From: Candidatus Magasanikbacteria bacterium RIFCSPHIGHO2_01_FULL_41_23
Lineage (GTDB): Bacteria > Patescibacteriota > Patescibacteriia > Magasanikbacterales > UBA922
DNA: 64,000 bases
Reading direction: 5' to 3'
NCBI GenBank assembly: GCA_001782805.1
Contig: MFPT01000004.1
Coordinates: 41,294 to 105,293 of the forward strand
Under the pieces are notes generated by a model. The model was given only the letters and a program-made list of their open reading frames with translations, ran no database searches and was not told the DNA's origin. The position numbers were made by a program, and so were the translations under genes. Below are positions 2,912 through 64,000 of this stretch, piece after piece (positions within the stretch are counted from its first letter, which is position 1; every line of letters starts with the position of its first letter).

Positions 2912-3673
2912 ATGCCAATCACTAGTTATTTGGAAAAAAAATTCCCGGCTCTGGAAAAAAAAATTGGCGTTGCTTTTCGCAATCCGGATTTGTTGGTGCA
3001 AGCATTGGTGCATCGGTCATTTTTAAATGAAAATAGAAATTTTCCTTTGGCGCACAATGAACGACTGGAATTTTTGGGTGACGCGGTGCTGGAATTAATC
3101 GTCACTGAATTTCTGTTTGAAAATTATCTTAATCCCGAAGGTGAATTGACGAATTGGCGCGCGGCTTTGGTAAATGCGAATATGTGCGCAGTCGTGGCGC
3201 AAGAAATTGATTTGGAACCATATCTTTTTTTGAGTCATGGCGAATCCAAAGACGCCAACACTAAAGCACGCGGATATATTTTGGCCAATGCACTTGAAGC
3301 AGTGATTGGCGCAATTTATTTGGATCAAGGATCGGAAATAGCCAAACAATTCGTCACTCGTTGGGTTTTGACCAAATTGCCGGAAGTTTTGGAACTTGGT
3401 TTATGGATGGATCCCAAATCGCGCTTTCAGGAAGGCGCGCAAGAAGTGGTGGGAATCACGCCAACATATCGAGTTCTCAAAGAAGAAGGTCCGGATCATG
3501 AAAAAAATTTCGTCATTGGCGTATATCTGGGCAAAGAAAAAGTCGCGGAAGGATTTGGCACGAGCAAACAAGAAGCGCAAACTGATGCCGCGGAAAAAGC
3601 CTTGCGTATCAAAGGCTGGAAAGGCCCGAAAGTTGATATTATAACCAGAACACAAACCGATCCAATTGGTTAA
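2912..3673 (+). CDS. rnc: Ribonuclease III
   Basis: 253 aa. RNase III catalytic signature ERLEFLGDAVLEL, plus a C-terminal dsRBD region. Confidence 0.9.
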   Translation: MPITSYLEKKFPALEKKIGVAFRNPDLLVQALVHRSFLNENRNFPLAHNERLEFLGDAVLELIVTEFLFENYLNPEGELTNWRAALVNANMCAVVAQEIDLEPYLFLSHGESKDANTKARGYILANALEAVIGAIYLDQGSEIAKQFVTRWVLTKLPEVLELGLWMDPKSRFQEGAQEVVGITPTYRVLKEEGPDHEKNFVIGVYLGKEKVAEGFGTSKQEAQTDAAEKALRIKGWKGPKVDIITRTQTDPIG

Positions 3674-8019: not shown

Positions 8020-8049
8020 AATTAAATTTGAAAAAATACTTTTTTTCTG

Positions 8050-8420
8050 AATCTTAAGAAAAATTCTTCTTTGCTAAATCTTAAGCAAATTTCATTCGTA
8101 CTAACTCTTAAGCAAAATTCGACGATATCCTTTTGTTCAACTGATAGTCTAACGGATTATGCATTCTCAACAAGTTATCATACTCAGCTTTCAGCAAAAG
8201 TATATTCGTCTCCATTTTGCTTATTAGTTTAGTCGAATGTTTCGCTGTTGCAATGCGAGACAGGGTTTAATCTTTGAAGCAAACTGGAGTGAGATCTTTT
8301 TCTCGATGCCCGAGCCTGTTTACCCTAAGCTTGTCGAAGGGTCGAGGGTCGAGAAAAATGGTCTCACGAAGTTTGCTTACGAGTTAGCAAAGAGGAATTT
8401 TTATTTTAATTTCCTTAATG
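8050..8420. repeat. Mosaic MITE-like intergenic repeat, copy B (TIRs CTAACTCTTAAGCAAA / TTTGCTTACGAGTTAG; three tandem half-sites at left end)
   Basis: Near-identical to copy C over ~170 bp and to copy A over the hairpin module. Ends with ggaatttttattttaatttccttaatg, shared with the groESL spacer element. Confidence 0.85.
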
Positions 8421-8447
8421 CAATTTAATAAATTATACCACAAAATT

Positions 8448-9603: not shown

Positions 9604-10686
9604 CTAATAAATAAACATGGCATCGCCAAAACTATAAAAACGATATTTATCGGCAACCGCTTGCCGATAACAAGATAACATAAATTCTCTGTCGCCAACC
9701 AATGCGGCGGTCAACATTAAAAGCGTTGATTTTGGCAAATGAAAATTGGTAATTAATGCGTCCACTACTTGGAATGTAAATCCAGGAATAATAAAAATAT
9801 TCAGATCGCCATGATACGGTTCAATCCAATTTCCATTTTTTTGACCGGAAAATTTGGCACAAAATTGCGCCACGCCTTCCAAAGTTCTGACTGTAGTTGT
9901 GCCCACCGCAATAACCCGTCGTCCATCGTGTTTTGCCTTATTGACGGACTCGGCTGTTTCCTGGGAAATCTCCACTTGTTCGCTGTGCATAGTATGGTCC
10001 GCGATGCGTTCGGTTTTAACGGGCAAAAAAGTTCCCAGGCCAACATGCAATGTTACTTCCGCGAATTCCACGCCTTTATTTTTTAATTTTTCAATGAGTT
10101 CCGGAGTAAAATGAAATCCGGCTGTGGGCGCGGCCACCGATCCTTCATGTTTCGCGTAAATAGTTTGATAGACATCAAGTTCATGTCGTTCATCTTTTAC
10201 ATAAGGCGGCAATGGCACGGATCCATATTGATTGGCTTTGGCGCGAACTTGTTCCGCTGTATCTGGAAATTGAACTAAAATTGTGCCGTCATTTTCTTTA
10301 ACAATCACGTCACACCAAAAATCCGACGCGAATTGTACGCGCGTGCCTGATTTTACATGCCGACCGGGTTTAGCCAGTACTTTCCATACTCCGAGATTTT
10401 CCATGGGCCGAACTAAAAAAATTTCCACTGGTTTAGTATGATCGCGCAACGGTTCACCTTTTTCCGACAGTAATTGTCCCGACAACCGCGCTTTAAAAAC
10501 TTTGGAATTATTCCAGACCAACAAATCACCTGACTGAAAATAATCAACAATATCAAAAAAATGTTTATGCGTTGTACTTTTTTGCGCGCGATCCACTATC
10601 ATCAAACGCGAAACATCACGCGGCTCAACCGGTTTTTGGGCGATCAGTCTTGTGGGTAAATTATAGTCAAAATCAGCGGTAAACAT
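9604..10686 (-). CDS. queA: S-adenosylmethionine:tRNA ribosyltransferase-isomerase
   Basis: 360 aa. N-terminal FDYNLPTRLIAQKPVEPRDVSRLM is typical of QueA. Confidence 0.85.
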   Translation of the reverse strand: MFTADFDYNLPTRLIAQKPVEPRDVSRLMIVDRAQKSTTHKHFFDIVDYFQSGDLLVWNNSKVFKARLSGQLLSEKGEPLRDHTKPVEIFLVRPMENLGVWKVLAKPGRHVKSGTRVQFASDFWCDVIVKENDGTILVQFPDTAEQVRAKANQYGSVPLPPYVKDERHELDVYQTIYAKHEGSVAAPTAGFHFTPELIEKLKNKGVEFAEVTLHVGLGTFLPVKTERIADHTMHSEQVEISQETAESVNKAKHDGRRVIAVGTTTVRTLEGVAQFCAKFSGQKNGNWIEPYHGDLNIFIIPGFTFQVVDALITNFHLPKSTLLMLTAALVGDREFMLSCYRQAVADKYRFYSFGDAMFIY

Positions 10687-10687
10687 A

Positions 10688-11716
10688 TTATTTTATTTTA
10701 TACATTGTTGCTTTGGCTTTTCCCAAGCGAACAATTTTTCCCAGCGCGATCAATTTATTAAAATCCAAATTACGCGTGGCTTTGGCGCGATCAGTTATCT
10801 GCGAATACAACTTGTCAGTAATGTATTCGTGTTCGGCAATGTAGTTTAAAATATTTTGATGATACGGTTGCAATACATCGGCTGGAGAAAACGCGGATTT
10901 TTTTAACCCCTCGCCCACGCGCAAAAGTTCATCAATAATTCCATCCGTAAAATATTCCAGCCATTCCGTAAAATCCAACTCATTTTTAATATCATAATAA
11001 TTTCCCCGCACGCCTACTGTGGCAAAATATTTAGTGACATTTTGATTATAATAATTTTCAAAACTAAACAAATTAAAAGTATTGAGACCCATCCCCGCCA
11101 ACAAAACTTTAGTAGCCAGTCGAATGGTTCGGCCATTGCCATCAATAAATGGATGGATAACAACAAACTGTTTATGAAAAATCCCGGCTAAAATCAGTGG
11201 ATCAAGAATTTTTTTATTGCGTTCTATAAAATCAAACAACTGTTTCATCAATTCCGAGACATCCGCCTGATCAGGCGGCCAGTACACGGTTATCCGCGCA
11301 CGCGGATCATTGACAAAAACCGGTTCTTGTCGAAGTACGCCGGAACGATGCTCGGACAACAAATTTTGTGTTACAGTTTTTTGTATTTTTAAAACTAAGG
11401 GCAAACCAAAATGAAAAGAACTTTCTTTAACCATTGTATTGAGTTCAATTAAAGCCTCATTATAATTCAAAACTTCTCGCTCACTGTCGCGAATAAATTC
11501 CGGACGGTGTTTCAAAATTTCCCTAACATCGGTCAATGGAAGTGGATTGCCTTCAATACTGGTGGAGGCATGGGCGGAAATTTCCCGTGCCTTTTTTTCC
11601 CAATCCATTAAGACCACTTTGGCCAATGGCTGATAGTTCAATTCTGCCACCAAAACTGAAATCCGTTTGACGTTTTGCAACAATTTAGGAGAAACCGTAT
11701 ATTTTGGCTTAAACAT
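10688..11716 (-). CDS. Fic/DOC family AMPylase-type protein with intrinsic N-terminal inhibitory motif
   Basis: Fic motif HPFIDGNGRTIR. N-terminal TSIEGN matches the (S/T)xxxE(G/N) auto-inhibition helix. Confidence 0.85.
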   Translation of the reverse strand: MFKPKYTVSPKLLQNVKRISVLVAELNYQPLAKVVLMDWEKKAREISAHASTSIEGNPLPLTDVREILKHRPEFIRDSEREVLNYNEALIELNTMVKESSFHFGLPLVLKIQKTVTQNLLSEHRSGVLRQEPVFVNDPRARITVYWPPDQADVSELMKQLFDFIERNKKILDPLILAGIFHKQFVVIHPFIDGNGRTIRLATKVLLAGMGLNTFNLFSFENYYNQNVTKYFATVGVRGNYYDIKNELDFTEWLEYFTDGIIDELLRVGEGLKKSAFSPADVLQPYHQNILNYIAEHEYITDKLYSQITDRAKATRNLDFNKLIALGKIVRLGKAKATMYKIK

Positions 11717-11809
11717 AAGGTTTTAAGTAATTGACTATAGACGAATTATAGACGATTGTTGGACGATTGTCAATTGCTTCTCTGGGTTTTTTGTCCCGAC
11801 TTGACGGGA

Positions 11810-12643
11810 TTATTTTTTCAAAAACCGTCGCGCATTTTCGTTATGTTCCGCCAATGTCCGCGCATACTTAACTTCTCCCGTGTCCAGCGTAGTCAAAAAA
11901 TACCAATAACCGTTTTTTTCCGGATTAATCGCGGCCATAATTGATTCCAAACTTGGATTACTGATTGATCCGGGCGGAAGTTTGGGATATTTATACGTAT
12001 TCCAAAAATTATCTGTTTGCCGGTCTTCATTGGAAGTAAATACTGTTCCCTCTTTGGCCGTCGCATAATGAACTGTGGAATCAGCTTGTAAACCCATTCC
12101 CACATCATGTCGTCGCCAAAAAATATCCGCGACTTTGGCTTTGTCGGTTTTGGTTTTCACTTCCCGTTCCAAAATACCGGCCATGGTCAAAATTTCATGA
12201 ATGCTTCTATCGGTCAATTTAATGGAATTTTGTAATTCCGCAGAAAATTCTTTTTCACGTTGAGATGCCAGCCGGCTTATGATATTCTTAACCGTTGCAT
12301 CCGCGTAAACACGATAAGTATCGGGCGCCAAATATCCTTCGAGACTGAGGCCGCGCGGTTTGGCGATCAACAGTGAATTGGTAATTATGGACGCAGTATT
12401 ATTTGCTCTGGCCGCCAGACCGGTAATTACATATACATCGGCAGTGGACGAAGCAAATTCTTGTTGTACCAAATATTCCGCCACGTCGCGCAAATCCCAG
12501 CCCGGAATAATTGTAATGGTTTTTTCCACGCGAGCATTGCGGACAATTTTTTCCGCTCGATCTTTGAGAACAGTTTGTCGCCACCACAAACCGGCCACAG
12601 TAATGATAATCACCGATAAAATGACAAATTTAACCACGCGCAT
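11810..12643 (-). CDS. mltG: Endolytic murein transglycosylase MltG (YceG-like)
   Basis: 277 aa. N-terminal TM, YLAPDTY and YKYPKLPPGSISNP motifs of the YceG family. Confidence 0.8.
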   Translation of the reverse strand: MRVVKFVILSVIIITVAGLWWRQTVLKDRAEKIVRNARVEKTITIIPGWDLRDVAEYLVQQEFASSTADVYVITGLAARANNTASIITNSLLIAKPRGLSLEGYLAPDTYRVYADATVKNIISRLASQREKEFSAELQNSIKLTDRSIHEILTMAGILEREVKTKTDKAKVADIFWRRHDVGMGLQADSTVHYATAKEGTVFTSNEDRQTDNFWNTYKYPKLPPGSISNPSLESIMAAINPEKNGYWYFLTTLDTGEVKYARTLAEHNENARRFLKK

Positions 12644-16019: not shown

Positions 16020-16140
16020 TTGGCATATAATTACAGACTGAGAATTAAAATAAAATTCTTTTTAATTAAACCAATAGGTGTAGTATACTATAAACCTTGA
16101 AATTAAATCAAGAGCTTTTACAAACTATATTTTTTTAACA

Positions 16141-16166
16141 AAAAACCTGCTGTTGGCAGGTTTTTT
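16141..16166 (-). terminator. Rho-independent terminator of groESL operon
   Basis: aaaaacctgc-tgtt-ggcaggtttttt, a perfect 7-bp stem with A/T runs on both sides, 30 nt after the groEL stop. Confidence 0.7.
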
Positions 16167-16195: not shown

Positions 16196-17857
<1,662 letters not shown>

Positions 17858-17860
17858 TTA

Positions 17861-17981
17861 AAGTGTGTTGATTAAAATAAAAATGGAATCCCGACAAGTC
17901 GGGATAAACTCCTGTAGCTTTTTTGAGCCCGATATTTATGAGGGTCTCAGAAAAAGATTTGCAGTGAATTTTTATTTTAAT
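17861..17981. repeat. Type-2 MITE-like element (TIR TTAAAATAAAAAT, internal palindrome ATCCCGACAAGTCGGGAT) inserted in groES-groEL spacer
   Basis: About 95% identical to 43738-43860. A partial copy lies at 47031-47075. It widens the normally short groES-groEL gap to ~155 nt. Confidence 0.8.
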
Positions 17982-17994
17982 TTCCTTAATGAGT

Positions 17995-18288
17995 TTATTT
18001 CTCAAGAACCGCCAGAATATCTTCTTGACTGACAATTTTATATTCCTGTTTTTCCACTTCCACTTCGTCGCCTCCCCATTTTTTAATGAGTACGCGATCG
18101 CCAACTTTAACTTCCATAGCCCCGCGCGCACCACTTTCCAAAAGTTTGCCCGGACCCACGGCCACAATTTCACCTTCGGCTTTTTTTTCTTTATCCACAG
18201 TATCAGGCAAAACAATGCCTGACGCAGTAATTTCTTCCTCCTTAACAAGTTTGACCACGACGTGGTCGCCGAGCGGTTTTATCGTCAT
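17995..18288 (-). CDS. groS: Co-chaperonin GroES (10 kDa)
   Basis: MTIKPLGDHVVVK... is typical GroES. Start taken at MTIKPL. Confidence 0.95.
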   Translation of the reverse strand: MTIKPLGDHVVVKLVKEEEITASGIVLPDTVDKEKKAEGEIVAVGPGKLLESGARGAMEVKVGDRVLIKKWGGDEVEVEKQEYKIVSQEDILAVLEK

Positions 18289-18383: not shown

Positions 18384-18410
18384 GAAATCCACAAATAAAA
18401 AATCCAAGGT
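18384..18410 (-). terminator. Rho-independent terminator ending the upstream (O-antigen-ligase-like) transcript
   Basis: Minus-sense CCAAG-cctac-CTTGG followed by ATTTTTTATTT. Confidence 0.55.
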
Positions 18411-18542
18411 AGGCTTGGCCCAAACGACGACCGTATAAATCTCAAGATGCCTGTCAGTACCCGAGATTCCCTGGCGTGCGCTTGCGCCCTGCCTACTGTG
18501 GATTCTTTAGTTCAGGCATTATATTCCGTTATATTCGAGCCG

Positions 18543-19847
18543 TCAATGAGGATAAATCAGGCTATTTTTTGCCTCAACAGAGCGCTGATGTGGATAACAA
18601 GTGGATGAAATAGATATGGCAAACAAGCAGAGTCCAATCCATGTGGTATATAAATAATGATCAAAAAAAGATAAAACGAAAATTGGTCCCAATCCCCAGA
18701 TTACGTTTTCTAATTTAAACCGCATATTTTTGGCTATAAAATATATAAACCACAGCCAAAAAATCATTCCAAAGATCCCCCATTCAACTAATCCCAATAC
18801 AAAAACGTTGTGAACAGGCTGAAGTTGCCATCCATTGAGTGCGGAATTTTGTTTTTGTAAAAAAACCGTAAAATTCCCTGGACCAGCACCAAAAAACCAA
18901 TTATTTTTAAATATATTCCACGCCTCGGCATATCCGATAACCCGTTCGGAAATCGAATTAACTTCATGTATTTCGACCATTGAAAATCTGGTTGTAACAA
19001 TCGGCCACAACAAGCCAAGCAAAACTAAAAAACTAAAGGCGGAAACAAAAACACCCAATGAAAAAAATGAATCCCGACATAATGGCTGGCGAAAAATCCG
19101 CCAATGTGAAAAAATAATCATAAACGCCCATGCCAGCCAAGCCGAACGACTAAATGATACCACCAATCCGACAGTTAAAATAATAAGAATAACAATAAAA
19201 AACCATTTTAATTTTTTTGTTTTAATTTGCCGGAATTTTTCTTCTGATTGCAAAAAAAATAAAATATGACTAATTACAATTACCATAAAACCCCCCAATA
19301 TATTGGGATGCGGAAATGTACCATACGCGCGCAACCAACGACCCGCGCTCGTTACAACTACACTGGCGCCGGCAATCCAACTAGAATGAGTCGTCGTCCC
19401 CAACAATGTTGATCCCCAAGTAGTTTGGCCAAAAAATTGTGCGATTCCCAAAACAGCCGGCACTATACTTCCAACAGCCAACCAAAAAATAATTTGTTGA
19501 TTATTTAAATATTTCTCGCGAATCAACATGCATAGTATCCCCGCTTCAATTATTCGACGAATAGTTTGAAACGCCAGCCAAGAATCGGACGCATGCCAAA
19601 TCATAACAAAAAAATAAATCAGCATGACAATAATTAACCCTGAACAATTAATTTTTTTATTAAACCAATGACGAATTCCCATCAATACTAACAGGATTTC
19701 AGTCAGATAAAAAATAATCGTGGCCTGTTGCCAAATACTCCCGCCGATAAACACCGTACTGGCGATAAACGCAGTTTGGAATGGCAAAAAAAACAAAAAC
19801 AAGCGCAACTCATTGGCAATAATATATTTGGATGTAAAAAATTTCAT
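18543..19847 (-). CDS. O-antigen ligase (WaaL/Wzy_C)-like polytopic membrane protein
   Basis: 434 aa, about 10 TM helices, with the FSRSAWLAWAF motif typical of the O-antigen ligase family. Confidence 0.65.
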   Translation of the reverse strand: MKFFTSKYIIANELRLFLFFLPFQTAFIASTVFIGGSIWQQATIIFYLTEILLVLMGIRHWFNKKINCSGLIIVMLIYFFVMIWHASDSWLAFQTIRRIIEAGILCMLIREKYLNNQQIIFWLAVGSIVPAVLGIAQFFGQTTWGSTLLGTTTHSSWIAGASVVVTSAGRWLRAYGTFPHPNILGGFMVIVISHILFFLQSEEKFRQIKTKKLKWFFIVILIILTVGLVVSFSRSAWLAWAFMIIFSHWRIFRQPLCRDSFFSLGVFVSAFSFLVLLGLLWPIVTTRFSMVEIHEVNSISERVIGYAEAWNIFKNNWFFGAGPGNFTVFLQKQNSALNGWQLQPVHNVFVLGLVEWGIFGMIFWLWFIYFIAKNMRFKLENVIWGLGPIFVLSFFDHYLYTTWIGLCLFAISISSTCYPHQRSVEAKNSLIYPH

Positions 19848-24198: not shown

Positions 24199-24427
24199 AT
24201 AAACTGCCGAATATGCTTATAGTGATTTCGCCCAGAGCGCCGGTTACGGCTAAAATCGCCAAAATAATTCCGGCTAAGCCGATTAATTTATACATTAAAC
24301 GAGATCCGCCGCCACCTAATTTTTCCTCGGCCCAATCACTGTGACCAAAATTTTCGAGAAACCATTCGGTTTTGATGACCATTAAACAGCCGATTACAAC
24401 GACGATTGTGGCGACGAAGTATTTCAT
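24182..24427 (-). CDS. Small hypothetical membrane protein (2 TM)
   Basis: 81 aa. Two hydrophobic helices flanking a GGGGS linker. Confidence 0.45.
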   Translation of the reverse strand: MKYFVATIVVVIGCLMVIKTEWFLENFGHSDWAEEKLGGGGSRLMYKLIGLAGIILAILAVTGALGEITISIFGSLFGQPR

Positions 24428-24440
24428 ATAATAAATTTTT

Positions 24441-24800
24441 TCTAAGTCTTAAGCAAACTTAGTTTATTCTAACTCTTAAGCAAAATTCAACGATATCCTT
24501 TTCTTCAACTGATAGTCTAACGGATTATGCATTCTAAACAAGTCATCATACTCAGCTTTCAGCAAAAGTATATTCGTCTCCATTTTGCTTATTAGTTTAG
24601 TTGAATGTTTGGGTGTTGCATTAGGGTAATTTCAGTAGTAGGTAATTTTGTTTTTCAGTAATGTGTATGAGCTTTCTTACTACTTACTTGGTTAAAGTAG
24701 ATTTAATATATCAATAAGGATAGAAACTAGGGAGAGGAGAAGAATAGCGAGTTTTACTGAAAAGAAAATTACCTACTACTGAAATTCAGTTGATTTAAAT
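24441..24800. repeat. Mosaic MITE-like intergenic repeat, copy C (left TIR plus a 180-bp inverted-repeat module)
   Basis: Left half is nearly identical to copy B. Right half (24610-24790) is nearly identical to copy D 40510-40690. It contains a ~33-bp inverted repeat aatttcagtagtaggtaattttgtttttcagtaa ... ttactgaaaagaaaattacctactactgaaatt. Confidence 0.85.
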
Positions 24801-40361: not shown

Positions 40362-40723
40362 TCCGTTTCCTAAGTCTTAAGCAAACTTCGTGAGACCATT
40401 TTTCTCGACCCTCGACCCTTCGACAAGCTCAGGGTAAACAGGCTCGGGCATCGAGAAAAAGATCTCACTCCAGTTTACTTATTAGGTATATTGAATGTTT
40501 CGGTGTTGCATTGGTGGGGAATTTCAGTAATAGGTAATTTTCTTTTTCAGTAATGTGTATGAGCTTTCTTACTACTTACTTGGTTAAAGTAGATTTAATA
40601 TATCAATAAGGATAGAAACTAGGGAGAGGAGAAGAATAGCGAGTTTTACTGAAAAGAAAATTACCTATTACTGAAATTACTGTTGAATTGATGTAAGTTG
40701 TAACTTATTTTAATTTCCTAAAT
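40362..40723. repeat. Mosaic MITE-like intergenic repeat, copy D (TIR + inverted hairpin module + 180-bp inverted-repeat module), inside uvrA 3' UTR
   Basis: Hairpin module is the reverse complement of that in copy B. Right half is nearly identical to copy C. A terminator hairpin follows at 40746-40774. Confidence 0.85.
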
Positions 40724-40745
40724 GTTTTTAGGATAAATAAAAAAT

Positions 40746-40805: not shown

Positions 40806-41400
40806 GGTGGACGAGGCAGCTTCGTCCGTGTTCTCCTTGTTGGTTGTTGTGTGAACCGGAACTTTCATCACTGCCGCCCACCGAAGTGGGTGATGAAAGT
40901 GCGGCGCCGAACGAGGCCGCTACTCGATGTGCTGAACGCCGAAGACGATGATCCGGATCTCCGAATCCTCGGTCGTCGTCGCCGGCCGCTCGATCGGGAT
41001 GTCGGCGTTGATCGCGTCCTGGAGGAGCTTGGTCGCCGCCTCCACAGGAAGACCCTGACCGACCGACGAGGACATCATCGAGATGGCGTCGGCCAAGCAG
41101 GCGATCCGCAGGCTCTGCGCGCAGAACGGGCTGTGGAAGTACCCGCTCTCGTAGCGGTAGCCGTGGGTCTCATCCGCCGACAACTTCTTGCTCCGGATGA
41201 TCTCGGCGATCTTGCCCATGTTGGGCGCCAATCGCTCGCCGACCAGCCGGATGAAGCCCGCCCCGATCTCGACGATGTCGATCCCGTGGTTCACGACGGC
41301 CAAGCCCACGGCCGTGTTCAGGTCAGCGCGGGTCCAGACCCGGCCGACCTCCTCGTCGTCGACCATCACGACGCCGTACCGGACGCCCAAGAACCCGAAC
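40806..41400. other. GC-rich (~60+% GC) compositional island in a ~40% GC genome; probable horizontally acquired DNA
   Basis: Abrupt switch from A/T-rich to G/C-rich sequence with GC-rich third codon positions. The frames on the opposite strand are Arg/Asp-rich junk, as expected for the antisense of high-GC coding DNA. Confidence 0.8.
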
Positions 41401-41453
41401 AACTTACACTTGTTGTTTTCCTCGAAAAAGAGCCCTTTCATGATGTTCTCCAT
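40920..41453 (-). CDS. Hypothetical 177-aa protein of foreign (high-GC) origin
   Basis: Single coherent ORF MENIMKGLFFEENNKCKLFGFLGVRYGVVMVDDEEVGRV.... The first ~20 codons are AT-rich and the rest GC-rich. I cannot assign a family from memory. Confidence 0.55.
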   Translation of the reverse strand: MENIMKGLFFEENNKCKLFGFLGVRYGVVMVDDEEVGRVWTRADLNTAVGLAVVNHGIDIVEIGAGFIRLVGERLAPNMGKIAEIIRSKKLSADETHGYRYESGYFHSPFCAQSLRIACLADAISMMSSSVGQGLPVEAATKLLQDAINADIPIERPATTTEDSEIRIIVFGVQHIE

Positions 41454-43644: not shown

Positions 43645-43719
43645 GCTCTCGTCGTCTAAAGGATATGACATCGGCCTCCGAAGCCGAAAATCCAGGTTCA
43701 ATTCCTGGCGAGAGCACCA
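43645..43719 (+). tRNA. tRNA-Arg (anticodon CCG)
   Basis: Cloverleaf: acceptor GCTCTCG/CGAGAGC, anticodon stem TCGGC/GCCGA with loop CTCCGAA, T-arm CCAGGTTCAATTCCTGG, encoded CCA. The D-stem has only 3 bp. Confidence 0.65.
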
Positions 43720-43737
43720 TATTCTTACATGTGTATT

Positions 43738-43860
43738 GATTAAAATAAAAATGGAACCCCGACAAGTCGGGATAAACTCCTTAAGCTTTTTTGAGCCCGA
43801 TATTTATGAGGGTCTCAGAAAAAGATTTGCAGTGAATTTTTATTTTAATTTCCTTAGATG
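43738..43860. repeat. Type-2 MITE-like element, second full copy (immediately 3' of tRNA-Arg)
   Basis: About 95% identical to 17861-17981. Confidence 0.8.
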
Positions 43861-44216: not shown

Positions 44217-44225
44217 TTCTTCTCA

Positions 44226-44258
44226 TAAAAAATCCTCCTATAAATCGGAGGATTTTTT
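44226..44258 (+). terminator. Rho-independent terminator (serves micropeptide gene; also faces convergent PHP gene)
   Basis: aaaaaatcctcctataaatcggaggatttttt: 8-bp perfect stem. Confidence 0.75.
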
Positions 44259-44270
44259 AATCCAAAAAAA

Positions 44271-45548
44271 TTAACTGAGATCAAAACTTTTTTGTTCTGT
44301 TTTTTTTCTTTCATTATCACCAAAAACTTTGACCACGCCAAATATACCATCATATCCCGGTTTAACATAAATATTTCCCTCACGAACGCGGCCTAACGCT
44401 TCGGCAATTTCAGGCGACGACACTGTTTGCACAAGAGACAAATCAGCCTGAAGTAAAATATAAAATTCACTGCCGATTTTTTTAATTAACGTATCGTAAA
44501 TTTGTGTAACTGCTTTTGAACTCACGCCAACGCCAATAGTATCTGCAATAATCTCGGGCAAAGGCACCAAATTTTTAAATGGCACGCGATTTAAAGTGCG
44601 CGCCTCGATTTCTGTTCGCGTTGATAATTCCGCCACGCGATTCATGACACCAATGGTCAAACCACGTCCGCATTTTGGACACAGACCGCGGTATTTTTTC
44701 GTATCATTCGGCGGACAGGAAAATTCACAAGTCGCATGGCCATCATAATGATATTTTCCTTCTTCCGGATAAAATTCAATCGTGTATAAAAATTTCGCAC
44801 GATCGCCTGTTTCAATAATCCGCTTAATTTCCGCATACGTAATGTCGCTTTCTTGTTCAAAGGAAAAAACATTGGCTTCACGACCAAGTTTTTGTGGACT
44901 ATGCGCGTCAGAATTGGAAATTAAAGTGATTCCATCGACTGCCGGCACTTGCCAATTCATGAGTGGATCGCTGGATAATCCGGTTTCAATCGCGTGAATA
45001 TGCGGAGTTAAGTCTTCAAACGCGTCCGACAGTGAATCATAACCGCCTTTGGATCCAAAAATACCAAACCATGGTGTCCACGCATGAGCGGGAATTACCA
45101 TCATCTGCGGATCAGCTTCCAGCGCCACGGTCAAAATATCTTTGGAAGTCAAACCCAAAATCGGTCGGCCATCAGCGCGAATATTACAACCAAGTTCAGT
45201 TAATTTTTTATTAAATTTTTTGACAGCCGCAAAATTAGGCGCAAAAATTAAATGATGCACGCGCCGCAATTTACCCGCGTGTTTTTTAATTGAAGCAACT
45301 TCAGTCCCTAAAATGAAACGAGTTGATTCCGACCTGTCGGGATTATTTTTTAAGGAAAAAATTCCGGAAGCACTTTCAAATAATTCTTGTTCTAACATCT
45401 CCAACCATTGGGGATGCGTAAAATCGCCCGTAGAAACAATATCAATTCCCCGCGTAACACAGGCTCGCGCAATTGTTTCCGGTATCAAATTTTTGGAACA
45501 AGCGCGTGAATAGCGTGAATGAATATGAAGATCAAGAATTTTTTCCAT
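44271..45548 (-). CDS. PHP-domain protein with C4 zinc finger, endonuclease Q (EndoQ/TIGR00375)-like
   Basis: N-terminal PHP motif LDLHIHSRYS. Internal CEFSCPPNDTKKYRGLCPKCG zinc ribbon. 425 aa. Confidence 0.6.
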   Translation of the reverse strand: MEKILDLHIHSRYSRACSKNLIPETIARACVTRGIDIVSTGDFTHPQWLEMLEQELFESASGIFSLKNNPDRSESTRFILGTEVASIKKHAGKLRRVHHLIFAPNFAAVKKFNKKLTELGCNIRADGRPILGLTSKDILTVALEADPQMMVIPAHAWTPWFGIFGSKGGYDSLSDAFEDLTPHIHAIETGLSSDPLMNWQVPAVDGITLISNSDAHSPQKLGREANVFSFEQESDITYAEIKRIIETGDRAKFLYTIEFYPEEGKYHYDGHATCEFSCPPNDTKKYRGLCPKCGRGLTIGVMNRVAELSTRTEIEARTLNRVPFKNLVPLPEIIADTIGVGVSSKAVTQIYDTLIKKIGSEFYILLQADLSLVQTVSSPEIAEALGRVREGNIYVKPGYDGIFGVVKVFGDNERKKTEQKSFDLS

Positions 45549-46283: not shown

Positions 46284-47033
46284 TCACACGGACGTTGTTC
46301 CAATATATTCAATATCTTCCGGAGTCAATCGTCGGATCCCTTCATCGTTAGTTATTTCTTCAACAATATGGGCAACGAGTCCGGGAACGCGGGCAATTAC
46401 AAATATACCATTTCCTATGCGCGCGTCAAAGCCCATATCACAAAGAATTGCCGCAATCGCGCCATCAACATTCAGTGGAAGTTTTTTGGATGAAATTGAA
46501 TTTAATCCGATTTCAATTTTTTGGGCAAACGTCGCATACTGACCATATATCCCAGTTTCTTTGGCAATTTTAAACAATGCTTGCGTACGCGGATCAACTG
46601 CAAAAATTTTGTGACCAAATCCGGACGCATATTCTTTGCGTTCCTTCATATTTTTAAGAAGTGCTACGATATCAGACTCGTCAACATGATCATAAAAAAA
46701 TTTCATCGCCGGTTCAACTACCACACCATGCCGACCACCCAGTCCAAGCAAACCGGCCGCAACCGAAGTGTGCAAATCATTTTTGGCCGAAGCCGAAATT
46801 CGGGCGTTCATCGCCGAACTTGTTGCCGGACCATGATCAATGATCGCGGTAAAAATGGCATTCATCATTTTTGTTTGTTCCGAAGTCGGTAAATGACCTT
46901 TCAAAATCAAAAAAATTGTTTCGACAAAAGTTTTGTTGGCAATTAAATCCGCCAAATTATGTCCACGAATAATTTCCGTGCCGTCGGTTTGAATGTTCGT
47001 GATTGCGGTTTTGAATTTCATATTAATTGTCAA
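46284..47033 (-). CDS. Citrate-synthase-like protein (citryl-CoA lyase-like / ATP-citrate lyase C-terminal-domain-like)
   Basis: 249 aa. Citrate-synthase catalytic motifs SGFGHKIF (GxGHxV His) and VDPRTQAL (DPR Asp). No full-length citrate synthase large domain. Confidence 0.6.
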   Translation of the reverse strand: MTINMKFKTAITNIQTDGTEIIRGHNLADLIANKTFVETIFLILKGHLPTSEQTKMMNAIFTAIIDHGPATSSAMNARISASAKNDLHTSVAAGLLGLGGRHGVVVEPAMKFFYDHVDESDIVALLKNMKERKEYASGFGHKIFAVDPRTQALFKIAKETGIYGQYATFAQKIEIGLNSISSKKLPLNVDGAIAAILCDMGFDARIGNGIFVIARVPGLVAHIVEEITNDEGIRRLTPEDIEYIGTTSV

Positions 47034-47077
47034 AATAAAAATGGAATCCCGACATGTCGGGATTATTTTAATCTAAA

Positions 47078-47968
47078 TTAAGAATGGGGTTTGATTAATA
47101 GAACTAAATCTTCGTATTTCTCCGCAATCATCACCCCAACATCACTCAACGCCTTTTCTTTTTCCACCGCGCCTTTCCCCTTCTCCACAATCGCGCCGGC
47201 ATGACCGATATTCATTCCCTCCGGGAGGATATTCGCGAATTTTCCCCCAATATAGATAGCGAGTGGTTTAGTATATTCGTCATTATTGATTAAGTCAACA
47301 ATCTCAAATTCATAACTGCCGCCGTGTTCGCCAAAAATAACCACGGCTTTTGTCTGATCATCTTTTTCAAATAAACGTAGTAAATCAGCATAAGTTGTAC
47401 CCATCAACAAATCACCGCCCACATGCACGGCTGTGCTTTGGCCCAAGCCAGCCTGGCGCAATTGCCATGAAATTTCATTGGTCATCCCACCGGAACGAGA
47501 AATTACTCCAATTGATCCAGGAGAAAAAATTTCATTAACCAATGGACCACCGACCACGCCAATGCGTCCAACTCCCGGAGAAATAAAACCGAGTGAACTG
47601 GGACCAATAATGGTAATATTTTTTTCTTTGGCCGCGGCCAAACAATAAGCTGTATCTTTAATGGGAATGCGTTCCACGATCGTGTTGATTAAGGGAATGT
47701 CGTTATTAATTGCTTCCAAAATTGCGGCTTTGGCCGCAAATGGTGGAACATAAATTGCGCTGATATTTATTTCAGGAAATTGCGTTTTGGCTTCAGTAAT
47801 GAAATTAAATACCGGTTTACCTTCCACTTCTTGACCAGCCTTATTGGGAGTAACGCCACAGACTACATTGGTGTTATAATCCAACATCGCGCGCGCGGCT
47901 TTGGCGCCTTCTTTGCCCGTAATCCCTTGGACGAGAACGTGAGTTTGAGTAGTGATGAGAATACTCAT
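47078..47968 (-). CDS. Succinyl-CoA-synthetase alpha-like CoA-binding/phosphohistidine subunit
   Basis: CoA-binding Rossmann fold N-terminus and phosphohistidine loop MNIGHAGAIV. Confidence 0.8.
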   Translation of the reverse strand: MSILITTQTHVLVQGITGKEGAKAARAMLDYNTNVVCGVTPNKAGQEVEGKPVFNFITEAKTQFPEINISAIYVPPFAAKAAILEAINNDIPLINTIVERIPIKDTAYCLAAAKEKNITIIGPSSLGFISPGVGRIGVVGGPLVNEIFSPGSIGVISRSGGMTNEISWQLRQAGLGQSTAVHVGGDLLMGTTYADLLRLFEKDDQTKAVVIFGEHGGSYEFEIVDLINNDEYTKPLAIYIGGKFANILPEGMNIGHAGAIVEKGKGAVEKEKALSDVGVMIAEKYEDLVLLIKPHS

Positions 47969-47969
47969 A

Positions 47970-49154
47970 TTATTTTTTCTTTATCATTTCGGCCAATACT
48001 TCGGCCGTCTCACTCATGCTCGTTTCTTTACCAAAAATTTTCATATTCAAATTATTTCTGATCGCGCATTCCTGCATTAAAGTTAAACCTTCTTTTTCAA
48101 ACGGCCCGGCACGACGAACGACAATCGGATAGTTTGGTTTTATTTCATCAAGCACGTCCGCGATTCCCTGAAATGTTTCCGCGATATTCGTAAAATTCGC
48201 GACTCCGCCCGCAATCCACAATCCACGCAAATTTGGTTTGGATAAAACAATTTTCGCCAGCGCGTAGACTTTTTCACGTGGCGGATTGCCGGAATATTCC
48301 GTGTAATTCGCCGGCTTCAATCCGGTTTTTAAAAGCGCGTCCATATTAGCGATACTGGCTCCGCCTCCGGAAAACAAAATCGCGATATCTCCATCCATTT
48401 CCATATATTTTCCCGCTGTTCCTTGATAATATTTTTCACCTTCGTCAATTTTTTTCACGGCAATTTCGCGTTCAGTCGGAGCACGACCAAGCATCGTGCG
48501 CGGTTCCAATACTTCCCATTCTTTATGTTTGTAAAAAGCATCATCATCCAGCGCCACTTTAGCATCGGCCGCAATCCAACGACCGTCCACGGTCTTGATT
48601 AAAGGATTAATTTCCACGACACGCGTGTCTTCGGCCAAAAAACAATTCCACAATGATCGCGCGATCGGTTCAAGATTTTCATTACTAAAATCATTATGTA
48701 AAGTTGATAATAATGTAATCTCACTATTACGTACATCCAATCCAATTTTGACAATCTTTTCTTCCGCCACATCTTCAATATCCATTCCTCCGGATTGCGA
48801 ATAAATCAGCATCGGCTGTTTTCTATTGGTATCGTACGTAATGGAAATATAATGTTCTTCGGCAATATTTAATTTTTCTTCAATCAGCACCGCGGACACA
48901 TATTGTCCGCGAATGTTTATGGTGAACAATGTATCACAGACTGTACGAACTTCTTCGGACGAACCACAAAATTTAATCCCGTTATTTTTGCCACGTTTTC
49001 CTGACAACACTTGGGCTTTAACTACAACGTCTTTAATTCCCAACTCATTATATTTTTGTATCGCATCATCACCACGACGAACAACAACCCCTTTTGGAAT
49101 CGCGATACCATGTTTTTTAAATAATTGTTTGCCTTCAAATTCGTAGAGGTTCAT
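47970..49154 (-). CDS. Succinyl-CoA-synthetase beta-like ATP-grasp subunit
   Basis: MNLYEFEGKQLFKKHGIAIPKG ATP-grasp N-terminus. About 395 aa. Confidence 0.8.
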   Translation of the reverse strand: MNLYEFEGKQLFKKHGIAIPKGVVVRRGDDAIQKYNELGIKDVVVKAQVLSGKRGKNNGIKFCGSSEEVRTVCDTLFTINIRGQYVSAVLIEEKLNIAEEHYISITYDTNRKQPMLIYSQSGGMDIEDVAEEKIVKIGLDVRNSEITLLSTLHNDFSNENLEPIARSLWNCFLAEDTRVVEINPLIKTVDGRWIAADAKVALDDDAFYKHKEWEVLEPRTMLGRAPTEREIAVKKIDEGEKYYQGTAGKYMEMDGDIAILFSGGGASIANMDALLKTGLKPANYTEYSGNPPREKVYALAKIVLSKPNLRGLWIAGGVANFTNIAETFQGIADVLDEIKPNYPIVVRRAGPFEKEGLTLMQECAIRNNLNMKIFGKETSMSETAEVLAEMIKKK

Positions 49155-49849
49155 ATAATTTTCCACTCTTGAGGAATTTCAATTTCAATCTTTTTGATTT
49201 CATCTTTTGTCGCCAATTTGAATTCTACGCTCGTGGCGCAGAGGGCGATTGAATGATGGCTATTCGCTTTCGTCTCGACACCCTCTTTCAAAGACTTGGG
49301 ACTATGTCGTGGCTCGTATTTTACATCACCGACAATCGGGTGTCCAAGATGGGCAAGTTGCGCCCGGATTTGATGCGATCGACCGGTTTTGAGATTAATT
49401 TTAATGATTGCATTGTCGCCCACTTTTTTGACCGTTTCATAATCCAATTCCGCGCGCAAAGTGTCCGGCGTCTCATGATCAAAAACCATAACCACGTTTT
49501 TGATTTCGTCTTTTTTTAAAAAATTAATTAAGGTTCCGGCGTTTGGTAATGGCGTTCCAATTACCAGCGCGTGATAGGTTTTTTTAATTGTATGATTGCG
49601 AATTTGTTCGCTCAAACGCGCCGCGCCTTTGCTGGTTTTGCCGAACAATACAATTCCCGATACGGGTCGATCCAAACGATGCACCACACCTAAAAAAACT
49701 TTGCCCAACTTGTGATATTTTTGTTTTAAATAATATTTTACTTCATCGCATAACGTGGCATCGCCGGTATCGTCGGCCTGCACCAAAACACCGGTCGGTT
49801 TGTACACCGCAATAATATGATTGTCTTCGTAGAGAACATGCAAACCCAT
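49151..49849 (-). CDS. RluA-family pseudouridine synthase
   Basis: HRLDRPVSGIVLFGKT catalytic motif. Start taken at MGLHVLYEDNH. Confidence 0.8.
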   Translation of the reverse strand: MGLHVLYEDNHIIAVYKPTGVLVQADDTGDATLCDEVKYYLKQKYHKLGKVFLGVVHRLDRPVSGIVLFGKTSKGAARLSEQIRNHTIKKTYHALVIGTPLPNAGTLINFLKKDEIKNVVMVFDHETPDTLRAELDYETVKKVGDNAIIKINLKTGRSHQIRAQLAHLGHPIVGDVKYEPRHSPKSLKEGVETKANSHHSIALCATSVEFKLATKDEIKKIEIEIPQEWKII

Positions 49850-62681: not shown

Positions 62682-63037
62682 GTACTTTGTTCCACAGTTT
62701 CTTGTGGCGTAGACTATATCTTCTTCTTGCTCTGGATGGTAGCGGATGCCGACAAGTCGGCACGTGATCCGCGTAATCTCAGTTTGACTGTGCAAGAGTC
62801 GGCGTGTTGTCTCTCCTGATCATTAATCAGGAAAAACCTCCCCTTTCGGGTCAGTCGTTACGGGGTTATCCCGACATTGTCGGGAAACTTCCCACGGTAT
62901 TGCCGGGTGATTGTGGGTCAATCACTGACGGGTTCACCGTTATAAGCCGAATTTGTGTCTCTTAATCTATCTAAATTTAAAATTTTAACGAAAAGAATTG
63001 GGATAAACATTACTGTTTGTGCACCCCGATATGTTAA
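62682..63037 (-). mobile_element. ORF-less group I-type intron in 23S rRNA at the peptidyl-transferase centre (about E. coli position 2500)
   Basis: ~355-nt insertion between exon sequences GGCACCU and CGAUGUCGG. Contains group I S-element-like AAGAAGATATAGTCTAC and R-like GAGATTA. Confidence 0.7.
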
Positions 63038-63571: not shown

Positions 63572-64000
63572 CCAAATTGTGTTAACTCCGCGTTCCCACG
63601 GAGATCAGACTATACTTTCATCTTACTCACAATCTTTAGGAGATTTCCCTTATCATATTGTCTTGCGCCCATATTATTCATAGAGTACGCAACGTCAATA
63701 ATTTTACAAATTCCGTTTTGGGAAAGGTGGATACGCTGTTTCATTAACTCGCAAACTAATTTAAACTGTTCAAAATCTGAACGTTTAGAAGTTCGGATTG
63801 GAAACAAGTTAAAGTGCGGGATAATCTTTTTTACAAGATCAGCCAAACTTCTGACTTCGTACTTCCATGTTCTGTCGCGTTTATTAAAACGAATTGTTCC
63901 GCAGTTAAAAAACCGCTGAATTTCTTTAAGAATGTTTTTACTTCTCTCATGTTGACTGACTGTAAAAGCCGGTCTAACTTCAAGTCCTATTTTCATTCTT
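63572..64000 (-). mobile_element. Second 23S rRNA intron (about E. coli position 1917-1951), carrying a LAGLIDADG homing-endonuclease ORF; 5' part beyond window
   Basis: Exon sequence AGTTCCGACCCGCACGAATGG resumes at 63571. The upstream side does not match conserved CCUUGUCGGGUA but is coding. Confidence 0.7.
63610..64000 (-). CDS. LAGLIDADG-family homing endonuclease (C-terminal part; N-terminus with LAGLIDADG motif lies beyond window)
   Basis: SQHERSKNILKEIQRFFNCGTI...IIPHFNLFPIRTSKRSDFEQFKLVCELM matches the I-CreI-type core following the LAGLIDADG helix. Confidence 0.7.
   Translation of the reverse strand, partial: RMKIGLEVRPAFTVSQHERSKNILKEIQRFFNCGTIRFNKRDRTWKYEVRSLADLVKKIIPHFNLFPIRTSKRSDFEQFKLVCELMKQRIHLSQNGICKIIDVAYSMNNMGARQYDKGNLLKIVSKMKV

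Follow-up and report, generated by a model that had tools for sequence, protein, structure and literature searches.

REP/BIME elements are extragenic palindromes that lie after stop codons or between the genes of operons, form mosaics and act as 3' mRNA stabilisers and weak terminators; their REP units, GC-rich and of about 35 bp, occur in very large numbers and are linked to a GTAG motif and to RAYT (Y1) transposases. Among the other families, BOX elements are modular, RUP elements are MITE-like and have a matching IS element, and Correia elements (CREE) bear 26-bp terminal repeats and a TA duplication. Regarding Streptococcus pneumoniae, BOX, RUP and SPRITE have been described as small interspersed transcribed repeats (PMC3049150), while the ERIC/IRU and YPAL/RU-2 families of Enterobacteriaceae and Yersinia are imperfect palindromes of 127-168 bp, co-transcribed with their surroundings and affecting mRNA stability (PMC2229807). 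The Correia elements of Neisseria (CREE/NEMIS) possess inverted repeats, an IHF-binding site and promoter-generating ends, and have been associated with RNase III cutting or protection and with altered expression of the adjacent genes (PMC2649163; PMC2229807). Finally, a stem-loop-associated cleavage between groES and groEL, giving separate fates to the two halves of the transcript, is reported for Agrobacterium tumefaciens in the account of PMC3989490, which refers to previous work.

The locus compared here with these systems is the groESL operon of Candidatus Magasanikbacteria RIFCSPHIGHO2_01_FULL_41_23, a member of the Candidate Phyla Radiation (Patescibacteria) from the Rifle aquifer. As seen by translation, groES (17995-18288, minus strand) encodes 97 aa, with a Pfam Cpn10 match on an identical protein, and groEL (16196-17839, minus strand) encodes 547 aa, being 100% identical to GroL of Ca. 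Magasanikbacteria RIFCSPHIGHO2_01_FULL_41_23, as an RluD-like protein is to one bearing the name of that genome; the two genes are separated by 155 nt (17840-17994). Upstream of groES there is a promoter-like site, TTGACA-16-TAAAAT (18379-18352, minus strand), followed on its 3' side by a CIRCE-like inverted repeat, TTAACACTC-N9-GAGTGCTAA (18340-18314, minus strand), both conserved in relatives. The only canonical intrinsic terminator of groESL, AAAAAACCUGC-CAACA-GCAGGUUUUUU (16140-16166, minus strand), is read from the sequence downstream of groEL. A promoter scan of the groES-groEL spacer returned 0 promoter-like sites, and an internal groEL promoter or a leaderless start in the residual spacer was rejected for want of an acceptable -10, both by eye and by the scan. 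Since the spacer has no promoter-like site and the sole canonical terminator follows groEL, groEL is probably expressed by read-through, with the intervening repeat lying within a bicistronic RNA. The earlier note on this DNA had claimed that the repeat is co-transcribed with a CIRCE-regulated operon, and co-transcription across the repeat can reasonably be inferred from the CIRCE-like site and the promoterless spacer.

In the same neighbourhood, a conserved locus resembling a small-RNA gene of about 110 nt occupies 18395-18546 (minus strand), with a Wzy_C-type gene on one side and the promoter of groES on the other. A separate TTGACG-17-TATAAT site and a terminator (CCAAGCCUACCUUGG, then a U-run) belong to this locus; it also has blocks such as ACUGACAGGCAU and GGUCG that are invariant in 8 Magasanikbacteria genomes, and it had no match in Rfam.

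The groES-groEL spacer contains a repeat of 126 nt, referred to as type 2 (copy 1, 17863-17988), which begins 3-4 nt after the groES TAA on the mRNA strand. A second copy in the same genomic orientation is located at 43731-43856, 11 nt after the 3' end of tRNA-Arg(CCG) (43645-43719), as the earlier note had observed. When the spacer was compared by BLAST with the window, meaning the whole stretch of 64,000 nt that was analysed, both copies were 96.8% identical over 126 nt (E 1.5e-59), and a repeat search gave 97%. The first description was of a 121-bp unit with terminal inverted repeats. The unit exists, and so do its inverted repeats, ATTAAAATAAAAAT (17871-17884) and ATTTTTATTTTAAT (17968-17981), of 14 nt each and A/T-only, but the unit measures 126 bp and the repeats are subterminal, since the sequence common to copies 1 and 2 extends beyond them by 8 nt at the left end and by 7 nt or more at the right. 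Similarly, the supposed perfect palindrome ATCCCGACAAGTCGGGAT (17888-17905) is palindromic, but in the form of an 8+8 inverted repeat around a 2-nt centre; it corresponds to the GC hairpin H1.

A remnant between the citrate-lyase-like genes, also foreseen in the earlier note, is found as a 32-nt partial match with 97% identity by BLAST (47032-47063). It belongs to a minimal or partial copy (47029-47077, minus strand), consisting of the A-arm, H1 with a CAUG loop, UUCC and the U-arm, that fills the spacer between a ccsB-like gene (47078-47968) and a ccl-like gene (46284-47033), flanks assigned by Pfam, and that has the same orientation to its upstream gene as copy 1 has to groES. The three-gene cluster at 46284-49166 (minus strand) encodes a citryl-CoA synthetase-like enzyme (ATP-grasp/citrate-binding and CoA-binding subunits) and a citryl-CoA lyase-like enzyme (citrate-synthase C-terminal domain), metabolic genes that are unusual in a small genome from this group. 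Searching the window with nhmmer gave no further significant type-2 copies once a match in an EndoQ-like gene was rejected. This in-frame hairpin copy (45302-45348; E 2e-4), associated with a 7-aa gap relative to the P. furiosus EndoQ structure, was ruled out because the loop is variable in 46 homologues and its DDP(D/N)-like residues are ancestral. All conspecific contigs, coming from several samples, carry both full copies, and three independent assemblies break inside a copy (one of them in copy 2), as expected of a multi-copy repeat.

The type-2 repeat is related to a second family, here type 1, composed of mosaic repeats of 350-400 nt at 866-1227, 8026-8437, 24421-24786 and 40366-40730 of the window and at about 11690-11955 and 12815-13205 of contig L129, the latter two in the 10 kb beyond the window. 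In these repeats, CTAAGTCTTAAGCAAA units recur at a spacing of 27 nt, and there are also a conserved core of about 180 nt and modules that form long hairpins; their orientation to the flanking genes is not constant, and they have no match in Rfam. The 26-nt end module of copy 1 (17966-17991, minus strand), reading CATTAAGGAAATTAAAATAAAAATTC on the mRNA strand, is common to them: its sequence GAATTTTTATTTTAATTTCCTTAATG is matched at type-1 repeat ends in 26 of 26 positions at 8395-8420 and 19 of 20 at 40705-40724, and weakly, over 13 nt, at 1185-1197. The link through this 3' end that had been claimed between the two families is thereby borne out, and it is stronger than was claimed, as the long hairpin of the type-2 repeat (H2) also resembles the type-1 hairpin module, aligning with it through GCCCGA ... 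GAGGGTC ... GAGAAAAA. With the shared end module and the related hairpin, both types belong to one mosaic superfamily. Type-1 copies, too, are insertions specific to this lineage, at places where relatives have a short spacer: the spacer between the PGI gene and an 82-aa gene has 419 nt compared to 17-39 nt in relatives, and that between a glycosyltransferase (GT4) gene and a DUF4012 gene has 428 nt compared to 33-239 nt. One type-1 copy is adjoined by an island of about 550 nt with 65% G+C in a genome of 41% G+C (40850-41450), between uvrA and the L19 gene. This island is absent in the relative L208, where uvrA and the L19 gene are 92 nt apart, and its ORFs on both strands gave no Pfam or NCBIfam hit.

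Regarding its anatomy on the mRNA strand, the type-2 repeat follows the order of end module (CAUUAAGGAAAUU...), A-rich arm, H2, H1, UUCC and U-rich arm. The A-rich arm AUUAAAAUAAAAAU (17968-17981, minus strand) is complementary to the U-rich arm AUUUUUAUUUUAAU (17871-17884, minus strand) and pairs with it in the MFE and centroid folds and in RNAalifold (columns 18-31 with 123-136). This A/T-only closing stem, together with H2 and H1, is predicted to form a three-way junction on either strand. H2 is an imperfect hairpin of 53 nt with a variable apex (17912-17964, minus strand), with folding energies of -12.7 kcal/mol on the minus strand and -17.4 kcal/mol on the plus strand, and H1, AUCCCGA-CUUG-UCGGGAU (17888-17905, minus strand), has -9.4 kcal/mol and is part of a terminator-like site on the minus strand. 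The 157-nt spacer folds at -30.8 kcal/mol on the mRNA strand (z -3.55) and at -37.6 kcal/mol on the opposite strand (z -3.51), both being equal relative to shuffles. The predictions conflict about the strand of action: the sole H1 change of copy 2 gives a G-U pair on the mRNA strand and a C-A mismatch on the other, pointing to the mRNA strand, while the G-U pairs of H2 favour the opposite one. Covariation is almost uninformative with three sequences. No hit at gathering score was obtained for the repeat against Rfam 15 at three sensitivities, the best on the 181-nt region being the rimP leader, with 21 bits compared to a threshold of 47. A protein-coding reading was also discarded, because the copies have ATG-started plus-strand frames of unequal length and the variant from contig L057 has a frame shift, so that the only reading frame through the repeat is not conserved.

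Among the matches listed, this metagenome contig, L057, holds the only true relative of the full type-2 element. The species-representative genomes scanned with a 23-nt hairpin pattern gave 0 matches, the source genome being evidently outside that collection, and viral contigs contained no copy of the element, with two irrelevant hairpin matches. In L057 the element directly follows the TAA stop of a PIF1-type helicase gene and is oriented to that gene as copy 1 is to groES. It keeps the stem bases of H2 with a different apex, and a second H1-like GC palindrome replaces the A/T arm and pairs with the H1 at the far end, resulting in a fold of -49.9 kcal/mol (z -6.1). As the ends are paired through a different sequence, the closed, folded-back shape seems to be kept while the closing sequence has changed. 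About 30 nt from this element ends a convergent truncated gene, integrase-like by eye (rve-type), to be taken as a lead only. The helicase itself (1259-2707) has 482 aa, and most homologues have 540-650 aa with an extra C-terminal domain; since the helicase of contig L207, without the element, is also short (481 aa), its truncation is not due to the element.

The earlier note had interpreted the spacer sequence as an insertion, and the comparison with empty sites favours that view. The groESL loci of eight relatives, whose GroEL is 87-92% identical, were compared. In seven of them the groES-groEL spacer is short (14 nt in one, 17 nt in three, and 18, 31 and 35 nt in one each), against 155 nt here. 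The eighth, L122, has a 350-nt insert (9651-10000) of unrelated sequence with a nested palindrome, gtcattctggcgaaagccagaatc..., suggesting that this spacer has been hit independently. The same 155-nt spacer in relatives, by which the earlier note proposed to judge its own claim, was encountered in none of the eight, and no type-1 or type-2 copies were found in about 130 kb of their syntenic DNA. A second, independent pair of filled and empty sites is given by L057 and L207: the L207 helicase gene (85% identical) has its stop at the same codon, and only 9 nt, without the element, separate it from an Smr gene. For the site of copy 2, the closest available RluD-bearing contig begins 7 nt before that gene, with the tRNA side outside the contig. 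Judged from these alignments of loci, copy 1 is an insertion into the groES-groEL spacer that occurred after the split from the short-spacer relatives.

The type-2 repeat is best understood, with a probability of roughly three in four, as a lineage-specific, non-coding, palindromic dispersed repeat that was inserted after groES and is passively carried in the groESL RNA. Its family would spread as a non-autonomous element, by transposition or by recombination-based copying, and the repeat would be borne in the bicistronic groES-groEL transcript, with groEL made by read-through. Between the repeat and the groEL ATG there remains an AU-rich leader of about 26-30 nt, which is the size of an ancestral spacer; its part outside the repeat (17840-17862, minus strand) is predicted to be unpaired. 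The predicted mean unpaired probability at positions -25 to -1 of groEL is 0.59 with the repeat and 0.58 after its in silico removal, and the accessibility over the start codon is 0.55 and 0.59, respectively. The groEL start region is then predicted to be unaltered in its accessibility, and the repeat may be tolerated because this leader is left free. Its most likely effect would be small, as H1 and an interrupted U-run may give some premature termination. Alternatively, a groES-only RNA might gain a protected 3' end, as with REP/BIME hairpins, or the repeat might provide a processing site.

These last possibilities lead to the reading in which the repeat is a co-opted regulator, that is, a partial terminator, an RNase III or RNase E site or a 3' stabiliser that selection maintains and that determines the GroES:GroEL ratio, which is considered rather unlikely. 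The suggestions of the earlier note, of an RNA-processing or stability determinant or of a modulated GroES:GroEL ratio, are accordingly speculative. On the mRNA strand, H1 followed by UCCAUUUUUAUUUU passes a simple terminator scan and looks weakly terminator-like; however, UCCA separates the H1 stem from the U-run, a gap absent from two clear terminators of the genome, the one following groEL and the one at 44224-44258, in which the U-run abuts the stem. In the partial copy at 47029-47077, the hairpin and U-run precede the likely ccl start by 10-25 nt, where efficient termination would be harmful. The three gene-adjacent copies (groES, ccsB-like and L057 helicase) all have the same orientation relative to the upstream gene, beginning 0-5 nt downstream of its TAA, which could reflect selection for an RNA-level function instead of passive carriage, but three such cases are not significant (p about 0.25), and the tRNA, the gene nearest to copy 2, has the opposite sense to it. 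The H1 change in copy 2, conserving a pair on the mRNA strand only, agrees with such a role, while the better pairing of H2 on the opposite strand does not. An RNase III is encoded in the same window (2912-3673, by Pfam), and the groES-groEL cleavage described in the Agrobacterium tumefaciens account (PMC3989490) offers a precedent for processing at this position. Against them, the relatives manage with their short spacers, and attenuation before groEL would be counter-intuitive, given that GroEL is needed in excess of GroES.

A broader version of this idea takes H1 into account beyond this lineage. The pattern GGAAYCCCGACWWGTCGGGRT was found in more than 115 metagenome contigs among the matches listed and in 67 places in species-representative genomes, its hosts being Chloroflexota, Planctomycetota, Bacteroidota, Chlorobiota, Acidobacteriota, Poribacteria and several Patescibacteria. 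The H1-type hairpin, GGAAUCCCGA-CUUG/CAAG-UCGGGAU, forms the tip of different repeat families (L007-L121, L131-L197) and also occurs in 23S rRNA helices. Examples of these contexts are a Pirellulales family with aaaattaaggaagtc-H1-ttccacaattttg and the nested palindromes of gtcattgcgagg.... The centre is AA or TT, giving a CUUG or CAAG loop, in about 90% of the distinct occurrences among the matches listed, and CUUG is one of the stable tetraloop classes. It is conceivable that the CUUG hairpin, UUCC and U-run constitute a cross-phylum functional RNA module, and that this bacterium, with its minimal genome, recruited a repeat bearing the module to uncouple groES from groEL by partial termination or processing, although this is quite improbable; if true, a lineage poor in classical regulators would draw on dispersed repeats for regulation within its operons. 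Searches of the literature on the hairpin sequence and on repeats in CPR genomes or groES-groEL spacers gave nothing relevant.

The recurrence of the motif in the 23S intron, pointed out in the earlier note, does exist as a 12-nt match to H1 in the 23S group I intron (62749-62760), but with a BLAST E of 0.45 it is at chance level, and since the hairpin is generic across phyla it gives no evidence of kinship. Besides, the 23S rRNA gene (minus strand) contains two sub-threshold group I intron matches, at 62691-63015 and 63586-63896, with 33 and 22 bits compared to a threshold of 50. The rRNA genes of this bacterial group are rich in introns, with which these matches are in accordance.

Less tenable still, and very improbable, is the reading of the type-2 repeat as a small RNA gene of its own, present in two copies and of about 95 nt, with TAAAAT of the end module as its -10 and H1 with the U-run, some 95 nt downstream, as its terminator. 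In its favour, the module in the type-1 copy at 8420 is immediately preceded by a good extended -10 (TGGTATAAT). However, there is no -35 element, the promoter scan finds no promoter-like site, the arm bearing TAAAAT is replaced by a GC hairpin in L057, and the repeat is absent from all relatives examined and has no Rfam match; an independent small-RNA gene was rejected mainly on the missing -35 and on the loss of the supposed -10 in L057.

The proposal that the 155-nt spacer is ancestral, and that its likeness to 43731-43856 reflects a local duplication without any insertion into the operon, is barely credible: nothing but the bare existence of two copies speaks for it, and it is refuted by the empty sites of the seven short-spacer relatives, the sole long spacer, that of L122, being unrelated in sequence. 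Finally, that the repeats delimit an integrated island of about 26 kb in the manner of attL/attR sites, as their direct orientation, their separation of 25,868 bp and the position of one of them 11 nt after tRNA-Arg might suggest, is next to impossible, since the interval is core syntenic housekeeping DNA (nusA, yidC and the groESL neighbours) with the gene order of relatives, the repeat has no overlap with the tRNA, and there are also the partial third copy and the variant from another organism.

Genomes of the Candidate Phyla Radiation are small and usually described as streamlined; here about 74 kb contain six copies of type 1 and, of type 2, two full copies and a partial one, in spacers that measure just tens of bases in relatives. 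One copy is inside the essential groESL operon. Such repeats break assemblies and can mislead gene callers. Should the groESL mRNA prove to be terminated or cleaved at the element, this would be a clear natural case of operon stoichiometry being rewired by a repeat; otherwise, it is a fairly ordinary small dispersed repeat in an unusual host.

As for its class, the earlier note had called it a mobile element with terminal inverted repeats, of which the insertion and the dispersed family hold, while the sense of a MITE is not supported. Following the description of MITEs in PMC2229807, the type-2 repeat is shorter than 200 bp (126 bp), non-coding and A+T-rich in its arms (A/T-only), and it has filled and empty sites, both at the groES-groEL spacer and at the 3' end of the PIF1 gene (L057 and L207); its inverted repeats, however, are not at the termini, and one arm is a GC palindrome in L057. 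No consistent target-site duplication was observed at the three copies, the longest flanking direct repeats being of 4 nt (A/T) with inconsistent boundaries, and the proteins scanned from the window included no transposase. As neither a duplication, terminal inverted repeats nor a cognate transposase were found, mobility is deduced only from the filled and empty sites.

Compared to the described systems, the type-2 repeat resembles the Correia elements in being a non-coding element within their range of about 100-155 bp, with inverted-repeat arms and an intergenic location that includes the inside of operons, and it can also be likened to them in their co-transcription with neighbours and folding into a long hairpin (PMC2649163; PMC2229807). 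Unlike them, it has subterminal inverted repeats of 14 nt that are A/T-only, a duplication was looked for and not found, and there is no sequence similarity; the long terminal inverted repeats, TA duplication and IHF site of a Correia element are not recognised in it. With bidirectional intrinsic terminators it shares an A-tract, a GC hairpin and a T-tract, with the exact shape in the 47029-47077 copy, but it differs by the UCCA between stem and U-run, the co-directional genes that need read-through and the extra 53-nt hairpin. The structure of Agrobacterium, in turn, belongs to a native spacer and not to a dispersed repeat. The modules and sequences of BOX, RUP and SPRITE are also different. 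YPAL elements likewise have internal inverted repeats, and they lack TA ends (PMC2229807); they have target duplications of 3-26 bp, of which none was seen here, and are not A+T-rich (PMC2229807). With REP/BIME there is a similarity in location, the type-2 repeat being likewise extragenic, placed after the stop codons of the groES, ccsB-like and PIF1 genes and sharing mosaic modules with type 1, with no GTAG beside H1 in the type-2 copies. Therefore, the type-2 repeat is best classed with the mosaic palindromic dispersed repeats, such as REP/BIME, BOX, ERIC/YPAL or Correia elements, as one specific to this lineage.
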